Counted from the stretch's first letter, positions 4,212 through 46,402 are shown. The stretch: 64,000 bases of DNA from Minisyncoccia bacterium (GCA_041485465.1 JBGPJO010000001.1:102190-166189); one strand, 5' to 3'. Notes: generated by a model not told the origin, from the sequence alone. A program made the numbers and translations.

Positions 4212-5708
4212 ATGACAGCAAAAGAAATCATCGAGAAAATGGACGCTCCGTCGAAGGAGGACCAAGACCTCATCACTAAAGCATTTGCTTTTGCGGAAAA
4301 AATTCATACAAATCACAAACGCTACTCGGGTGAGCCCTATCTTGTCCATCTTTTTGAAACGGGGAAAAATCTGGCCGAGCTTGGAATGGGGGCGGCGACG
4401 ATTGCCGCCGGGCTTCTTCACGATTCGCTTGAAGACGCCGGCGCCAAAGAAGAGGATATCCAAAAAGAATTCGGGCCAGAAATTCTCTTTCTTATCCAGG
4501 GAGTGACCAAGCTCGGTAAATTGAAATATCGGGGCGCGAAGCGCCATACCGAGAGTTTGCGTAAACTCTTCGTCGCCATGTCGCAAGATATCCGGGTACT
4601 GATTATTAAACTGACCGACCGGCTCCATAACATGCAGACGCTTCAGTATGTTCCCCCGTTAAAGCAAAAACGAATCGCTCTTGAAACACTCGAGGTGTAC
4701 GCACCGATTGCCTATCGTCTCGGCATGCGGAAGCTCAATCGGGAGCTTGAAGATTTAGCCTTTCCATTCGTCTTTCCTGAAGAGTATGCAAAGACGGAAG
4801 CAGTGCTTAGAAAGAAAAACAAGGAGACCGCAAAACCACTTGAGAAAGTTCTTAATAGTATTAAAAAGGCGCTTGCCAAAAGCGCTATAACAGACTTCAA
4901 AACTGATTTCCGCGTCAAAGGGCTCTACAGTCTCCACAAAAAACTGGTACGCAAAGATATGGATATCGAAAAAGTCTATGATATTGCGGCAATCCGGATC
5001 ATCGTGCCAACGGTTGCCGACTGCTACAAGGTGCTCGGCATCATTCACAGTTCCTTTAGACCGCTTCCGGGGAGAATCAAGGACTACATCGCCTTCCCTA
5101 AACCAAACGGCTACCGCTCGATCCACACGACCGTTTTCACTGGGGATGGCGGCATTATCGAAGTCCAGATTCGAACCGAGGAAATGCAGCGCGAGTCCGA
5201 GTACGGCATCGCCTCCCATCTCTCATACAAAGACGATAACGGTAAGAAGGCCCGGAACGCGAATATTCTATGGATTATGAGCCTGCTTCGGCCTCAAATC
5301 TTAGCCCAAAGAAAGCCTGATACGGAAAAATTCGTCGATGTCCCCCAGTGGATCAAACATCTCGCAAAAACAGAGCTCTCAAACGAACCTGATGAGTATA
5401 TAGAAACCCTGAAAAGCGATTTCTTCGGTCATCGGGTTTTTGTCTTCACACCGAAAGGTGATGTGATTGATCTTCCTTCTGACTCAAGCCCCATTGATTT
5501 TGCGTATGCCATTCATTCAGATATAGGTAATCATATTTCGGGCGTTAAATTAAACGGCAAACTGGTCACCCTTGATACCAAACTAAAAAACGGCGACATT
5601 GTTGAAATCGTCACCAAGGAAAAAAGTAAACCTTCCTCGAAGTGGCTCGAACTCGTGAAAACGACCGAAGCACGGCGGCATATCAAAAATATTCTTCACC
5701 TTGGCTGA
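4212..5708 (+). CDS. rel: Bifunctional (p)ppGpp synthetase/hydrolase of the RelA/SpoT family; short form with HD + synthetase + TGS and no ACT domain
   Basis: HD motif AAGLLHDSLED, synthetase region RVKGLYSLHKKL..DIAAIRIIV..YRSIHTTV, TGS domain FVFTPKGDVIDLP..DFAYAIHSDIG. Confidence 0.85.
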   Translation: MTAKEIIEKMDAPSKEDQDLITKAFAFAEKIHTNHKRYSGEPYLVHLFETGKNLAELGMGAATIAAGLLHDSLEDAGAKEEDIQKEFGPEILFLIQGVTKLGKLKYRGAKRHTESLRKLFVAMSQDIRVLIIKLTDRLHNMQTLQYVPPLKQKRIALETLEVYAPIAYRLGMRKLNRELEDLAFPFVFPEEYAKTEAVLRKKNKETAKPLEKVLNSIKKALAKSAITDFKTDFRVKGLYSLHKKLVRKDMDIEKVYDIAAIRIIVPTVADCYKVLGIIHSSFRPLPGRIKDYIAFPKPNGYRSIHTTVFTGDGGIIEVQIRTEEMQRESEYGIASHLSYKDDNGKKARNANILWIMSLLRPQILAQRKPDTEKFVDVPQWIKHLAKTELSNEPDEYIETLKSDFFGHRVFVFTPKGDVIDLPSDSSPIDFAYAIHSDIGNHISGVKLNGKLVTLDTKLKNGDIVEIVTKEKSKPSSKWLELVKTTEARRHIKNILHLG

Positions 5709-5710
5709 TA

Positions 5711-6703
5711 TCAGATCGAGAAATCCTTAACCGAGTAGAGATCATCGCTCTTGTTTTCTTCATCGCTCTTTTCGGCAAGCGGCTTATCCTCCAGGGTTTG
5801 GGGAATGTCTTCTTTTTTATTGATGCCAAGCGCGTCTCTCGTTGTCGCAATAAATTTTTCCATAAGATTGGTTGGGTTCTTGGTTGAACCGATGAGATCA
5901 AGAATGGTGCGCAGGTCGTCTTTCGAGAAGAAATCAATGACTATTTTCCCGCCTTGTTCTTTGCGCTCAATTTTTACCCGAGTACCGAGGGATTCGGTCA
6001 ATTTTTGTTCAAGTTCAATCATCTCGGTATCTATCACTTCTTTTTTTCTTACCCGGTCGGTCGCAATGCGCCTGGCTATCGCCTCCGCCTCGCGGACAGT
6101 GAGTCGTTTAAAGAGAATTTCTTTGTAAAGCGTCCCTTGCTCTTCCGGATGATCAACAAGCATGAGCAGTGGGCGGGTATGCCCTTCGCTGATTTTCCCT
6201 TCGGCAAGCGCTCGTTGAAACTCTTCGGGAAGAGAAAGCAGCCGGAGGGTGTTTGAAACATATTCACGGCTCTTCCCTATCTTCTGCGCAATTTCGGCGT
6301 GTTTAAATTTAAATTCCGTAACAAGCCGCTCAAAGGCCCGAGCCCGATCGATCGCATTCAAATCTTCGCGCTGCAAGTTCTCGATGATAGCAAGTTCAAG
6401 CTTGGTACGGGCATCGTCAGCAGATGCCCGGATAAGCGCCGGCACCTGAGACAGCCCGGCCATCTTTGAAGCGCGCAACCGGCGCTCTCCGGCAATCAGC
6501 TCATATTCAACCTGAAGCCCCCCTTCCGACTTTTCGTGTTCCTGACGCGTTACAATCAAAGGTTGAAGAACTCCATATTGGCGAATAGAATCAGCCAGAT
6601 CTTTTAGTCGGGCTTCATCAAACTCCCTCCGTGGCTGATACGGGTTTGGACTTATCTTGTCGATATCAATCCAGAAAATTGAATCTCCGTAAAATTGCGA
6701 CAT
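5711..6703 (-). CDS. parB: ParB/Spo0J-like partition protein with a long charged C-terminal tail; no parA adjacent
   Basis: N-terminus ISPNPYQPRREFDEARLKDLADSIRQYGVLQPLIV and the GERRLRA box. Confidence 0.8.
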   Translation of the reverse strand: MSQFYGDSIFWIDIDKISPNPYQPRREFDEARLKDLADSIRQYGVLQPLIVTRQEHEKSEGGLQVEYELIAGERRLRASKMAGLSQVPALIRASADDARTKLELAIIENLQREDLNAIDRARAFERLVTEFKFKHAEIAQKIGKSREYVSNTLRLLSLPEEFQRALAEGKISEGHTRPLLMLVDHPEEQGTLYKEILFKRLTVREAEAIARRIATDRVRKKEVIDTEMIELEQKLTESLGTRVKIERKEQGGKIVIDFFSKDDLRTILDLIGSTKNPTNLMEKFIATTRDALGINKKEDIPQTLEDKPLAEKSDEENKSDDLYSVKDFSI

Positions 6704-36979: not shown

Positions 36980-37077
36980 GTAGAAATGTCTTTTGAAATG
37001 CCTTGCGCAGCGCGACGGCGCAAGCAGAGCAAATTTCTAGCAAGAAATTATGTGTGCATTTCAAAAGACATTTCTAC
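36980..37077. promoter_or_regulatory. Nested palindromic element upstream of trxB: a perfect 22-bp inverted repeat enclosing two inner hairpins
   Basis: gtagaaatgtcttttgaaatgc at 36980-37001 is the exact reverse complement of 37056-37077. Inside it, cttgcgc..gcgcaag and aatttct..agaaatt also pair. Confidence 0.5.
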
Positions 37078-37086
37078 GAAATCTAA

Positions 37087-38034
37087 GTGTTGATGTATAA
37101 TGGCAAAACTATGTATGACCTCATCATCATCGGCGGAGGACCGGCGGGTGTATCAGCGGCAGTCTATGCCGCGCGGAAACGCTTAAAAACGGCGTTCATA
37201 TCGGAATCATTCGGCGGACAAAGTGTTGAGTCCGTCGGCGTTCAAAATTGGATCGGCACTGTTTCGATTTCCGGACCAGAGTTCGCAAAAGCTTTTGAAA
37301 CGCACTTAAAAGCGTACGCCGCTGACAGTGTCGACATAAAAGTGCCTGGACGCGCTACCCTTATAGAAAAAACTAACACCGGGTTCAAGGTTGAGACCGA
37401 CAAAAAAGAAACCTTCGAATCAAAAACGCTTTTCCTTGCAATCGGAAGTACGAGAAGGAAACTGACTGTACCAGGCGCGGAAAAACTCGAACATAAAGGG
37501 ATCACCTACTGCGCTTCCTGCGATGGCCCGCTTTTTTCTGACATGGATACCCTCGTCATTGGCGGCGGTAATGCCGCGTTTGAGACGGCGGCGCAACTTT
37601 TGGCATATACGAAAAGTGTGACACTTTTGAATCGCAGTGACGTATTTCGAGCCGATCCCTCGACCGTCGAGAAGGTACTCCGGAATCCAAAGGTGAAAGC
37701 CATTAAAAATGCTGATCTTATAAGTATCGAGGGGGACAATTTTGTCACGGGCATCACTTATAAAGACAAGAAATCGGGGGAAACAAAAAATCTTTCTGTT
37801 CAGGGAGTATTTGTCGAAATAGGACTCATTCCATCAACCACCATTGTAAAAGAGTTGGTCGCAATGAATGAAATAGGTCAGATTAAAGTTGATCCGAGAA
37901 CTCAAGCGACTTCAACCTTAGGCATCTGGGCAGCGGGCGATTGTACCGATGGTTTATACCACCAGAACAACATTGCGTCCGGAGACGCGGTAAAAGCGCT
38001 TGAGGATATCTATCTTCACTTGCACACAAAATAG
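37087..38034 (+). CDS. trxB: Thioredoxin reductase (likely start at Met 37111)
   Basis: YDLIIIGGGPAG (FAD), CASCDG redox-active disulfide, VIGGGNAAFE (NADPH). Confidence 0.9.
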   Translation: MLMYNGKTMYDLIIIGGGPAGVSAAVYAARKRLKTAFISESFGGQSVESVGVQNWIGTVSISGPEFAKAFETHLKAYAADSVDIKVPGRATLIEKTNTGFKVETDKKETFESKTLFLAIGSTRRKLTVPGAEKLEHKGITYCASCDGPLFSDMDTLVIGGGNAAFETAAQLLAYTKSVTLLNRSDVFRADPSTVEKVLRNPKVKAIKNADLISIEGDNFVTGITYKDKKSGETKNLSVQGVFVEIGLIPSTTIVKELVAMNEIGQIKVDPRTQATSTLGIWAAGDCTDGLYHQNNIASGDAVKALEDIYLHLHTK

Positions 38035-38040
38035 TCTTTG

Positions 38041-38113
38041 TGCGCGGTAAGGGACTCGAACCCCTGGCCCTTCCCACGTCAAGGGAATGCTCTACCAACT
38101 GAGCTAACCGCGC
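38041..38113 (-). tRNA. tRNA-Val(GAC)
   Basis: Reverse complement gives gcgcggttagctcagttggtagagc...uuGACgu...ggttcgagtccc...accgcgca. Confidence 0.85.
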
Positions 38114-38162
38114 GTGTTTGAAATTGGAATATAGCAAACCTAGAGTCCTTTTTCCAGCGCTA

Positions 38163-38657
38163 CTATAGCTGAATTGTATCCCCGATTTTAATTCCCTTTT
38201 CTTTCGCAAAACCAGCATCAACCTCAACTACGTAGCGCGCCTTATTTTTCGGCTCAAATATTTTTGGATATGTGTCGGGGCTAAGATTTTCAGAAATGTC
38301 GACAACTTTTAAATCGTCTCCTACCCAAATAATATCAATGCTAAATTTCATTTCTTTCATCCAAAACTGGTATCTGTCAGCGTAGTCAAAGACGAAAAGC
38401 ATTCCTTGATCTTGGACGAGTTTTTCACGTCCTGAAAGTCCCTGCTCGCGCATTATAGGAGTATCCTCCACTTCCACCTTAATTATCGTCGTTCCAATTA
38501 TTATAGTTTTCTCAAGAGGAGAACCACCCGGGAAAACGGAGTCTAAATTATTGGCGCTGTCGCTTGTCAGGGTGTCTTGATGAACATCTACAAACAATAA
38601 CCCCGCGACAATCACTGCCGATCCGAAGATTAAAATTTTACCAATGCTTTCTTTCAT
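38163..38657 (-). CDS. DUF192-domain secreted/membrane protein
   Basis: N-terminal TM, then GLSGRE..GMLFVF.....FWMKEM.FS.DIIWV..D..VV.I..........P.....YVVEV.AGF, which matches DUF192 (COG1430). Confidence 0.7.
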   Translation of the reverse strand: MKESIGKILIFGSAVIVAGLLFVDVHQDTLTSDSANNLDSVFPGGSPLEKTIIIGTTIIKVEVEDTPIMREQGLSGREKLVQDQGMLFVFDYADRYQFWMKEMKFSIDIIWVGDDLKVVDISENLSPDTYPKIFEPKNKARYVVEVDAGFAKEKGIKIGDTIQL

Positions 38658-38725
38658 GTCTTGTGCGGTGAGGGTCGGTCTGGAACCAACCCGCTCTCAT
38701 CAGTATAAGGGTATTCCAGAGAGCA
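38658..38725. repeat. Copy A of a ~65-nt conserved structured element, immediately 5' of the DUF192 start
   Basis: tgcggtgagggtcggtctggaaccaacccgCTCTCatcagtataagggtattccaGAGAG, compared with copy B. Confidence 0.6.
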
Positions 38726-38791
38726 AGCGTGTCGGCAAAAACTACGAGGAACGGTCGGAATCCTAAGTGAGAAAGAAGACGGCGGCAAATG

Positions 38792-39082
38792 TTAGAGATG
38801 GAAAAAGAAAACAGGAGCACATGCCGCAAGTGCGGCAACGATTTGAATCGCCAGAACAAAGAGCGCTTGCACGGGTCTTTGCGGCAACCATCTTATAGCG
38901 AAAAATGACACCATCAGTACTTCTAAAACCACCCAAATCTGAAAGAGATGTGCGCCCGTTCCCTCATCCGGCTCGCGGACGGGAGCGCCGAAGATTGCAA
39001 TACCAAAAACCCACGCCGCCAAAACGAGGAGGGATATTACGATTGGAATCCAAGCGCTCGGTTGTTTCAGTAGTGAGTTCAT
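38792..39082 (-). CDS. Hypothetical small membrane protein (96 aa, three predicted TM helices)
   Basis: Hydrophobic helices IPIVISLLVLAAWVFGIAIF, FQIWVVLEVLMVSFFAI and LFVLAIQIVAALAACAPVFFF; preceded by repeat copy B. Confidence 0.45.
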   Translation of the reverse strand: MNSLLKQPSAWIPIVISLLVLAAWVFGIAIFGAPVREPDEGTGAHLFQIWVVLEVLMVSFFAIRWLPQRPVQALFVLAIQIVAALAACAPVFFFHL

Positions 39083-39162
39083 ATGTTTTTAGAACCAATT
39101 GGGAGATCTGGAGGTTTCGGAGATTGCGGCATCCTGCAAAAATATAGTCGCTCTGCTCCTTA

Positions 39163-39232
39163 TTTTTGCGGTGAGGCTCGGTCAGGAACCAACCCGTTCC
39201 AAGCAATGTAAGGGTTTCTTGGCGAGTTAGCG
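39163..39232. repeat. Copy B of the ~65-nt conserved structured element
   Basis: tgcggtgaggctcggtcaggaaccaacccgttCCAAGcaatgtaagggtttCTTGGcgag. The hairpin stem covaries with copy A (ctctc/gagag versus ccaag/cttgg). Confidence 0.6.
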
Positions 39233-39345
39233 ACAAGACAAATTTAGGAGGGGCGGTCGTAGCCATATTCTTGCAATTTTAATATAAGTATGTTATACGA
39301 GATGTTAGAAAGTTTCGCTGAAATCTCTGCAACCTGACAGGAGAA

Positions 39346-39945
39346 TTGGAGATGTTTGAAAGAAAACAAGCTGCCGTTCCGGTGATTCCCCTACAACGTC
39401 CGACTCCGCGTTTGGCGATCGTTGGAAGCGAATTGCTCGGTCCATATGAGGCGATTGCACGGGAATTGAACTACAGTCCCGCCCATCTCCTCCAAGAGCA
39501 ACTGCTTCGGTTTCTCGCGGAGAACCAGATCCAGATCTACGATTACGATGCGGTCGACCATTATTTGGCCGCCATTGCCGAGAAGGTCGGAAAGGTTTGG
39601 GTCTGGCGCCCGTTGCGCAAGCAAGACACGCTGGACTGGAAGAATGAAAATGGCCACTGCCATTGGTGGGGACGAGCGCCAACCGGCGAGACAGGCCATG
39701 TGACCGCGGGCCACGGCAGTTGTCGGGCCAATGAGTGGACCTATCGTCCGTATCATCATGCAGTACCAGCGCCAATCCTGTGGAACGCCAAAAAAATCCA
39801 CGACGAATTCGGCGAGCGCGTGAAGTTCTTCGTCAGCGACTATGCCGTTCCAAAGCCCGATCCGTTCATCATGGTGACAGCACAGGACGTCGACAAGATC
39901 ATCTTCGGCGTCTGGGACGAACCAAGTTTCGGCACCAACAATTGA
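39346..39945 (+). CDS. Hypothetical protein in a GC-rich (about 55-58%) segment, probably horizontally acquired
   Basis: RBS ggag 4 nt upstream of the ATG; composition differs from flanking DNA (about 43-48% GC); no recognisable domain (WVWRPLRKQD..NGHCHWWG..). Confidence 0.4.
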   Translation: MEMFERKQAAVPVIPLQRPTPRLAIVGSELLGPYEAIARELNYSPAHLLQEQLLRFLAENQIQIYDYDAVDHYLAAIAEKVGKVWVWRPLRKQDTLDWKNENGHCHWWGRAPTGETGHVTAGHGSCRANEWTYRPYHHAVPAPILWNAKKIHDEFGERVKFFVSDYAVPKPDPFIMVTAQDVDKIIFGVWDEPSFGTNN

Positions 39946-40041
39946 TCGACACGACATCGATCGTAGAGCTCCGCACAATCGCGGGGCTCTTTTCTTTTTG
40001 ATGCGTTTCGGTCGCGTAACACCGTTTCACTAGACTACGGA

Positions 40042-40059
40042 GGTGAGAGGATTCGGTCA
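40042..40059. repeat. 18-nt exact duplicate of the tRNA-Ser(CGA) 3' end (cggaggtgagaggattcg), 155 bp from the tRNA
   Basis: Identical to 40217-40234 in the same orientation; att-like remnant. Confidence 0.6.
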
Positions 40060-40213
40060 CGAGTCACTAAGTCTTTTGTCTCACTTCGCTCACAAAAGTC
40101 TAAGTGCTCTCGACCCCGCCTCGGCGCTTCATCGTCCCCCGGACGCGCGCCTGCGACTTTCGAATCCTATCACTATAGTAATTTTCAGTATCAGAAGACA
40201 CTAAAAATTTCTA

Positions 40214-40303
40214 TGGCGGAGGTGAGAGGATTCGAACCTCTGATAGAGTTTCCCCTATACCGCATTTCGAGTGCGGCGCCTTCGACCACTCAGCCACACC
40301 TCC
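40214..40303 (-). tRNA. tRNA-Ser(CGA), type II, CCA encoded
   Basis: Reverse complement gives ggaggtgtggctgagtggtcgaaggc...cuCGAaa...long variable arm...ggttcgaatcctctcacctccgcca. Confidence 0.8.
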
Positions 40304-40483: not shown

Positions 40484-40740
40484 TTGACATAAATTCCCCA
40501 AAGAGTAATATCCCTAAAGGTCTTGGGGGGTCAGGGAAAATCATCAAATGGGGCACCGAGCTGAGGCGGCGACCAATTGGCGCTCCATTCCTGGAGTACC
40601 GGCGGTTTGGAAGAGAAATCTTTCGAAGTCCTTAGGGACTGCTTAGCCCAGAGGCTCATACTTAATCTTTGAGATTTCCCCTGTTCTCCCCCCGGGACCG
40701 ACCCACAAGGCTACTCACACCAAACGTGCGTGGCCTTTTT
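40484..40740 (+). ncRNA. Candidate ~220-nt structured small RNA (6S-like long irregular helix; SRP RNA not excluded) with its own promoter and terminator
   Basis: Promoter ttgaca-N16-taatat at 40484-40511. 5' GGGGGGUCAGGGAAAAUC (40532-) pairs with GAUUUCCCCUGUUCUCCCCCC (40693-), closing a ~180-nt imperfect helix. Terminal hairpin plus T7 at 40715-40740, directly abutting the tsaD ATG. Confidence 0.35.
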
Positions 40741-40742
40741 TC

Positions 40743-46066: not shown

Positions 46067-46328
46067 TGGGGTCTCCTCTAATTGATTCCGTAGTTTTCTA
46101 TGAACTTTTTACCATAAAATGATAAAAAGTTCACTGTTATGCGAAATAAAAATCCAATAACCCGATTATTAAATTTTGCTCTGTGCCGAGGGGAAGAAAG
46201 GCAAACTTCTTTGCCTTTCTTCCGGTTCTCCGCAGGAGAATGCGCTGTTATTGAGCGGAGCAAAATAAGCGCAAGGAGGACCGACCAGAGGCACAAAATT
46301 AAAAGCCCTTTCGGGCTTCTTAATTTTG

Positions 46329-46402
46329 TGCCGAGGGGCGGAGTCGAACCGCCGACCCTTTGTTCTTCAGACAAATGCTCTAACCAACTGAGCTACCTCG
46401 GC
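46329..46402 (-). tRNA. tRNA-Phe(GAA)
   Basis: Reverse complement gives gccgaggtagctcagttggttagagc...cuGAAga...ggttcgactccgcccctcggca. Confidence 0.85.

Follow-up and report, generated by a model that had tools for sequence, protein, structure and literature searches.

The segment downstream of tRNA-Ser(CGA) at 40038-40213 on the minus strand, a folded, non-coding mini-element of 175 bp, is one intact copy of a widespread family of structured elements that follow tRNA genes in ultra-small (CPR) bacteria, and not debris. Positions are counted within the window, by which we mean the whole 64-kb stretch of DNA that was analysed. The arms of the element are copies of the end of the neighbouring tRNA, and we lean, with moderate confidence, towards the view that a live tRNA attachment site is occupied here by a non-autonomous integration module, which acts by a mechanism that we infer from sequence comparison. 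The main rival to this view is that such elements are cis-acting RNAs of tRNA operons which are useful to the host, an explanation kept alive by clusters in which one tRNA after another has an element of its own.

An intact structured element behind tRNA-Ser(CGA)

The gene for tRNA-Ser(CGA) occupies 40214-40303 on the minus strand (ARAGORN; Rfam tRNA, 59.4 bits) and encodes its own CCA at 40214-40216. The segment from T-loop C56 to the discriminator base (40217-40234) is one of two exact occurrences of the 18-mer CGGAGGTGAGAGGATTCG, written here for the plus strand, the other being located at 40038-40055 (18/18 identical). When up to three mismatches were allowed, a search returned these two matches only, as compared with 0.05 expected, and none of 100 shuffled sequences yielded two or more. 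The original prediction, which had reported an exact 18-nt copy of the tRNA 3' end, was thus right about the repeat and right to regard it as related to the tRNA rather than as a common repeat; the coordinates it gave for the copy (40042-40059) were 4 nt off. The distal copy has the same orientation as tRNA-Ser and lies downstream of it, as the direct repeat of an island would, and both copies of the tRNA end are followed by TAG. The 161 bp between the two 18-mers (40056-40216) are entirely non-coding and hold a third copy of the tRNA-Ser end, this time inverted, at 40159-40173 (14/15 positions), which had previously been missed.

Read along the minus strand from the tRNA outwards, the element begins with an AT-rich palindromic hairpin of 17 bp directly after the tRNA (40175-40213; fold -16.1 kcal/mol, z -6.3). 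Its first bases are AGAAATTTTT (40203-40212), which is also present at the end of a recombinase element, and it is at the tRNA-facing edge of this hairpin that homology to contig L211, a second assembly of the same chromosome, breaks off. The inverted copy described above, which corresponds to the tRNA segment TTCGAATCCTCTCAC and was detected by repeat search, forms the 5' arm and is able to pair with either the tRNA copy or the 3' arm. It leads into the conserved class-A core (40056-40161), made up of the junction GAAAG (40157-40161), the P2 hairpin (40116-40156) and the P3 hairpin (40056-40115), the last with a CACTTAG...CTTAGTG module and GTGAC at its end. The core is supported by a covariance-model match, by a three-way junction as the MFE fold of the window copy and by covariation across the family. 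The distal 18-mer, likewise identified by repeat search as an exact direct copy of tRNA C56-G73 without CCA, is the 3' arm. With the family's covariance model R1, the window copy is matched at 40046-40171 on the minus strand (43.1 bits, E about 5e-11); it lies 42 nt from tRNA-Ser on the same strand and with matched arms, class-A elements being defined by such arms and by a position 20-90 nt downstream.

The same stretch of DNA holds an orphan relative of class A at 36980-37077 on the plus strand, between the ftsZ terminator and trxB. It is a degenerate copy (R1 match at 36990-37066, 31.9 bits; fold z -7.5) with a perfect 22-bp closing stem and with P2 (GCGCGACGGCGC) and P3 (CAAATTTCTAGCAAGAAATTATG) modules as in L045 and L125, and it has neither tRNA-derived arms nor the GAAAG and GGGGTCG junctions. 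Furthermore, after tRNA-Phe (46280-46330) and other tRNAs, terminator palindromes reach into the last bases of the tRNA (GGCAC ... GTGCC), so that tRNA 3' ends in this genome regularly contribute to the hairpin behind them. CCA is encoded in 4 of the 14 tRNA genes of the window.

For comparison we used 80 Paceibacteria genome loci syntenic for tsaD, in which the order ftsZ, trxB, tRNA-Val, tRNA-Ser(CGA), tRNA-Glu, tsaD, valS is conserved. Within about 10 kb of the element, the window carries genes for S1, Pth, signal peptidase, HisRS, YbeY, FtsA, FtsZ, TrxB, TsaD, ValS, PrsW, Hsp20 and LepA. A Pfam search over 10 kb on either side detected housekeeping genes only and no recombinase, and the 64-kb window has no homologue of the L211 recombinase described below, in agreement with the earlier statement that no integrase is present. 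An exact look-up of the window's TsaD returned no further contig. The tsaD gene is also preceded by a candidate small RNA gene at about 40488-40742 on the plus strand: a TTGACA-17-TAATAT promoter after tRNA-Glu is followed by a strongly folding region of roughly 215 nt (-97 kcal/mol, z -4.8) and by a terminator (GGCCACGCAC...GTGCGTGGCC plus T6) that ends at the tsaD start codon, with no ORF and no Rfam match.

A family of elements at tRNA 3' ends

Across the 80 Paceibacteria loci, many tRNAs (Ser, Phe, Arg, Gly, Val, Glu and His) are followed by exact copies of their own 3' end, 17-22 nt long and 115-300 nt downstream, some of them in tandem and some accompanied by an inverted copy. The shared order is tRNA, a palindromic and often terminator-like hairpin, 5' arm, GAAAG, P2, GG, P3 and 3' arm. 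The 5' arm is complementary to the tRNA from T-loop C56 onward, and the 3' arm is identical to it from C56 to the tRNA end; P2 is a hairpin with a GGA/GA internal loop, P3 begins with GGUCG and ends with GUGAC, and GCGAAGC-type loops are frequent among the elements. The same three-way junction was obtained in all six copies that were folded, the window copy among them. This arm logic is common to at least three unrelated scaffold classes (A, B and C), the window copy belonging to class A.

The covariance model R1, which was built from six copies, found 42 matches in the genome loci and the window, 108 in 80 metagenome loci from a core-motif scan and 47 in the remaining loci; in total, the model detects about 190 copies in roughly 1.85 Mb of sequence from Patescibacteria and metagenomes. 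Of the elements analysed, about 70% (104 of 148) lie no more than 150 nt downstream of a tRNA on the same strand, with 19 isotypes represented. In the metagenome core-motif scan, 64 of the 81 matches are linked to a tRNA, and several matches that seem unlinked are preceded by tmRNA 3' ends or by tRNA fragments. Some genomes have an element for nearly every tRNA of a cluster, placed between consecutive tRNAs (L125, L128); in the window, only one tRNA out of 14 carries one.

The direct repeat starts 19 nt before the annotated tRNA end, at C56, in 35 of 61 cases and ends 0 to 3 nt past the tRNA. A fixed-length target-site duplication was ruled out, as the end of the repeat tracks the end of the tRNA, with or without CCA. 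An analogy with retroviral primer-binding sites was also rejected, given that the complement does not include the complement of CCA.

Covariation was observed in all four helices: 90-91% of cells are paired, a value that was reached in 0 of 500 shuffles and that stands against 28-48% in slid controls. Pairs changed on both sides amount to 21 of 23 and 20 of 23 at the level of the family, in alignments fitted to the model, which favours pairing. P1 covaries partly by construction, both of its arms being derived from the tRNA; the other three helices (P2, P2b and P3) owe nothing to the tRNA sequence. In P3, one G·U pair is kept in 97 of 104 copies, and this conservation identifies the tRNA-sense strand as the functional one.

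The tRNA-flank family is apparently uncatalogued. Searches of Rfam 15 with the window copy and four canonical copies, at gathering and at permissive thresholds, returned only tRNA matches and noise, and the literature that we searched does not describe such elements. By eye, the core was compared with the consensus motifs of hammerhead ribozymes, kink-turns and attC sites, none of which fits. A scan of viral contigs for the class-A core produced one chance match, inside a coding region, and clustering of the 369 ORFs that neighbour elements revealed no recurrent protein and no recurrent recombinase.

We also noticed mirror-image elements upstream of tRNAs (L009:724-860, L029:6804-6954 and L059:3463-3587, as well as in L006, L036, L044 and L054). 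In these, the first 14-18 nt of the tRNA, sometimes together with about 38 nt of leader, are copied 80-135 nt upstream, and the boundary falls in the D-loop, at or adjoining G18-G19. Taken with the boundary at C56, this corresponds to the G19:C56 elbow pair.

Insertion behaviour and a serine recombinase at the tRNA boundary

The interval between tRNA-Ser and tRNA-Val measures 5-31 nt at empty sites (L044, L083, L035 and L042), while in L013 an element and its repeat lie between the two tRNAs, the distal copy being 4 nt from tRNA-Val. L018 is empty and its close relative L011 is filled, and the tRNA-Ser genes of the two differ by one compensatory pair only. Units also occur in tandem (L033, L093) and in mixed-class arrays (L109), and L067 has a cassette-like arrangement of tRNA-Ser, a class-C element, two ORFs and a class-A element with repeat. 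Where the tRNA and distal copies differ, the 5' arm agrees with the tRNA copy by 24 to 3, and the distal copy is often truncated, down to 7-10 nt; the distal copy therefore looks dispensable and the 5' arm constrained. [quoted passage not shown]

Contig L211 was found by an exact look-up of the window's DUF192 protein. It is 100% identical to the window over 2.3 kb (37912-40212), a stretch that covers the 3' end of trxB, tRNA-Val, the DUF192 gene, the membrane gene, ORF199, the 3' arm, the core, the 5' arm and the hairpin, and identity breaks at 40212/40213, 1-2 nt short of the CCA of the tRNA. The place of the tRNA is taken in L211 by the final 325 codons of a gene for a large serine recombinase (Recombinase plus Zn_ribbon_recom), with an ORF that crosses the junction. 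The recombinase faces the antisense tRNA fragment represented by the 5' arm, which mirrors the layout of recombinase and tRNA elsewhere. The enzyme belongs to a large family, well conserved among CPR bacteria (1695 matches at E≤1e-10), and relatives are convergent to the 3' ends of tRNA-Ser(GGA) in L213, of tRNA-Ser(TGA) and tRNA-Ser(GCT) in L214, of tRNA-Leu in L129, of tRNA-Tyr in L033 and of tRNA-Glu in L175 and L021. In other contigs the recombinase gene is flanked by inverted repeats of roughly 100 bp.

The 10-nt sequence AGAAATTTTT is common to the window, to L211 and to both ends of the L213 element, which suggests that it may be the common core of the recombination site. Coming from one 3.3-kb contig and this 10-nt shared sequence, we have direct evidence for the tRNA/hairpin boundary as a probable live recombination site. 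For the L211 recombinase element a single junction was recovered, and most copies of the recombinase have no adjoining class-A core. The interpretation of the repeats as an attL/attR footprint stands in part: they appear to mark integration at a real attachment site, as judged from the L211 junction, and what they enclose is 161 bp of non-coding DNA only.

The recombinase element itself is about 1.7 kb long and highly conserved (L211:1-979; L213:81-1773; L214:1-1431 and 4797-6596). It has terminal inverted repeats of roughly 100 bp, of which the right one overlaps the 3' end of the gene. One genome of 1.06 Mb has two copies against tRNA-Ser 3' ends within 5 kb, and the reconstructed target in L213 is a perfect palindrome that starts with the tRNA's CCGCCA.

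Proposed mechanism and the main rival

As an integration module, the element would enter by site-specific recombination at or beside the tRNA 3' end, with the recombinase supplied in trans. Candidate enzymes would be the large serine recombinases that lie against tRNA 3' ends in these genomes. The two arms (18-21 bp), comparable in length to a serine-recombinase half-site, would imitate the tRNA end and serve as half-sites, and a single-stranded form of the folded core, be it DNA or RNA, may be required. Precise excision is predicted to leave ...CTCACCTCCG(CCA)TAGTCTAGTG.

Several observations speak against an integration module. There is no recombinase in the 64-kb window and none that recurs beside the elements; most copies of the candidate recombinase stand without a class-A core, the L211 junction is known from one short contig and a 10-nt shared sequence, and the scan of viral contigs gave nothing beyond a chance match. 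Matched arms for 19 isotypes would call for a retargeting route, which the proposal leaves unspecified. Moreover, a function as a single strand is indicated by the strong covariation and by the invariant G·U of the tRNA-sense strand, something that the double-stranded sites of serine recombinases leave unexplained, and an element on nearly every clustered tRNA (L125, L128) would also fit a function for the host.

This last point leads to the main rival. According to it, the element is a host-beneficial, cis-acting structured RNA of tRNA transcription units, with a role in processing or termination or as an insulator or folding switch, which is inherited vertically and has spread by duplication rather than by transposition. 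We consider this possible, though on balance unlikely. Strand and distance to the tRNA are fixed and no protein is linked to the elements, as one would expect of such an RNA, yet orthologous tRNAs in close relatives do without the element and only one of 14 tRNAs in the window has it. Covariation in P2, P2b and P3, none of which derives from the tRNA, argues for a host RNA, as does the nearly invariant G·U, but an arm logic common to at least three unrelated scaffolds does not. For the 5' arm, the 3' segment of the tRNA itself and the mimic downstream are alternative pairing partners, and its complementarity to the tRNA has stayed perfect even at sites with an altered distal copy, which a host RNA would accommodate; a terminator-like hairpin, however, usually stands between tRNA and element. 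Similarly, the placement of elements between consecutive tRNAs in clusters favours a host role, whereas the existence of tandem copies, mixed-class arrays, cargo genes and an orphan without a tRNA counts against it.

A broader reading would unite classes A, B and C with the mirror-image 5'-end elements as protein-less mobile modules defined by their structure, for which tRNA and tmRNA genes would be universal landing pads and whose junctions at C56 and G18-G19 would reflect the elbow pair. The active form would be a folded single strand, either RNA or DNA, and the modules could be integron-like cassettes with the tRNA in the place of attI, or else a ribozyme or RNA-level element that recognises the folded tRNA. 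We regard this as speculative and quite unlikely.

ORF199 and the remaining explanations

Beyond the distal repeat lies ORF199 (39352-39945, plus strand), with 197 aa from an ATG that is the likelier start (P0001) and an alternative TTG at 39346. Between the ORF and the 3' arm lies the intrinsic terminator of ORF199, with a 10-bp stem and a T-run (39965-39999, plus strand). The gene had been singled out as GC-rich, foreign-looking and devoid of a recognisable domain. Its composition is indeed exceptional, with the highest GC (0.553) and GC3 (0.645) of the 52 ORFs in the window (means 0.465 and 0.486; z about +2.8 and +2.6), and comparison with Pfam, NCBIfam, PHROG, PADLOC and PDB sequences gave no match. 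The AF2 (AlphaFold) model is confident (pLDDT 91) and has no Foldseek neighbour in PDB or BFVD. The family numbers 65 clusters at 90% identity and 1663 at 50% identity, its members being single-domain proteins of about 180-280 aa with a conserved C-terminus (FFVSDY...PDPF...VWDEP).

Homologues of ORF199 were found in seven unrelated contexts without tRNA or att linkage, among them a ribosomal-protein operon in which the homologue follows map. Their GC content exceeds that of the surroundings in six of these seven contexts. The gene is unchanged in both the recombinase-occupied and the unoccupied variant of the locus and therefore does not belong to the DNA that varies. ORF199, which lies outside the element, is a gene in its own right with a sporadic distribution, and its family is large and uncharacterised. 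Since the high GC content is genuine and the homologues have unrelated surroundings, a separate horizontal acquisition, unlinked to the tRNA repeat, is plausible.

A homing endonuclease was also considered for ORF199, prompted by a homologue between the halves of a RecD2-like helicase, and was rejected, as there is no nuclease motif or fold. This homologue lies on a phage-like contig (L089:5085-7880) that also encodes RNase H/exonuclease, PDDEXK, ThyX and dGTP diphosphohydrolase; it is tightly packed, on the same strand, between the N-terminal (OB/HHH) and helicase halves of the RecD2-like gene. In the interval 39299-39362, the opening 14 nt of ORF199 (GAGATGTTTGAAAG) recur 50 nt upstream (GAGATGTTAGAAAG); the duplication creates an upstream ORF of 11 codons, which may be a leader peptide or a duplication scar. 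Farther to the left, a 69-nt repeat with 75% identity between its copies (38661-38729 and 39164-39232, minus strand) precedes the DUF192 gene and the 96-aa membrane gene. It forms a GC-rich hairpin (GGGUUGGU...ACCGACCC) without an Rfam match, the leader of the second copy is partly conserved in L045:6793-6830, and the repeat could be a shared cis-regulatory leader.

The original prediction had joined these features into a decayed island at 38650-40210, comprising ORF199 and perhaps the membrane gene, with its integrase lost and the 18-mers as attL and attR; we find this highly unlikely. ORF199 is the compositional outlier of the window, and neither it nor the membrane gene occurs in the syntenic interval of the 80 relatives. 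However, the geometry contradicts an island: ORF199 ends at 39945, outside the repeats, there is no third bounding copy at up to three mismatches, and the 161 bp that are enclosed make up a complete, intact member of the family. Comparison with these relatives shows ORF199 to be missing from their tRNA-Ser locus and does not tie it to the repeat. The suggested leftward extension fails on the same grounds, as the membrane gene and the repeated RNA element are both situated on the far side of the distal repeat, with no additional 18-mer to delimit them. The variability of the tRNA-Val to tRNA-Ser interval and the recombinase at this tRNA flank in a sibling strain (L211) would suit an island, but ORF199 itself is the same in both variants and its homologues show no tRNA or att linkage.

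Least probable of all is a guide-RNA-like element in the manner of TnpB omega-RNA or bridge RNA, in which a scaffold that ends in GTGAC would present the target-matched 18-21 nt of the tRNA end as a 'guide' to an RNA-guided nuclease or recombinase encoded elsewhere, its two arms possibly addressing both DNA strands, given that roughly 10 nt at the start of the 'guide' are taken up by pairing in P1, that no TnpB, IscB or IS110 gene is nearby, that no omega-RNA-type Rfam match was obtained and that the target would be the cell's own essential tRNA gene.

Implications and comparison with known systems

If our reading of these elements is true, hundreds of structured elements have gone unrecognised in Patescibacteria, a group with some of the smallest known genomes, where they lie at the 3' ends of essentially every tRNA species and of tmRNA. 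This would explain many of the 'partial tRNA' fragments in CPR assemblies and would make tRNA flanks the main recombination hot spots in these reduced genomes. For specialists in RNA and in mobile DNA, the analysis provides a new family with a model, coordinates, covariation and a candidate recombinase. It also holds a warning for annotation, namely that a tRNA-end repeat beside a gene of odd composition need not bound an island.

Among known systems, integrative elements that target tRNA and tmRNA genes share with the present family an intact tRNA, the additional use of tmRNA, tandem arrays and partial tRNA fragments, the last of which have been described (PMC9897764). Unlike them, the insert here is only 100-190 bp long and comes without integrase or cargo, and it adds an inverted copy of the tRNA end and a covarying three-way-junction fold.

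Large-serine-recombinase elements of the phiC31/Bxb1 type offer a second parallel, with a Resolvase, Recombinase and Zn-ribbon family at tRNA 3' ends, and at this very junction in L211, and with 18-21 bp of identity by the junction, which is the size of a half-site. The sites used by serine recombinases are short and double-stranded, and no long repeats result from their action. In contrast to phiC31/Bxb1-type systems, most recombinase copies here have no class-A core, and the proposed link to the mini-element derives from one junction.

In topology, the closest likeness is to integron attC and CTX-phi attP sites (XerCD), with a direct copy, a short body, an inverted copy, a loop of roughly 90 nt and a direct copy. 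Along with this topology, the frequent GCGAAGC-type loops are suggestive of recombination as folded single-stranded DNA. Structure is conserved over sequence in both, and the L067 array with its cargo is cassette-like. The target here, however, is a tRNA end and not attI or dif. By inspection, RYYYAAC/GTTRRRY core boxes and dif-like XerC/D arms are absent, the junctions being GAAAG and GTGAC|C56, and we know of no dependence of tRNA-flank elements on IntI or Xer.

Palindromes similar to MITEs (RPE, Correia and the PATEs derived from IS200/IS605) are likewise small, non-coding, rich in hairpins, multi-copy and non-autonomous, but the arms of our elements are copied from the specific target tRNA instead of being fixed terminal repeats, and their location is strictly downstream of tRNAs. 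Finally, HDV-like theta ribozymes behind phage tRNAs and T-box leaders are further examples of structured RNAs coupled to tRNAs. The present elements differ from these in having no Rfam 15 match and in combining both a copy and the complement of the tRNA 3' end.
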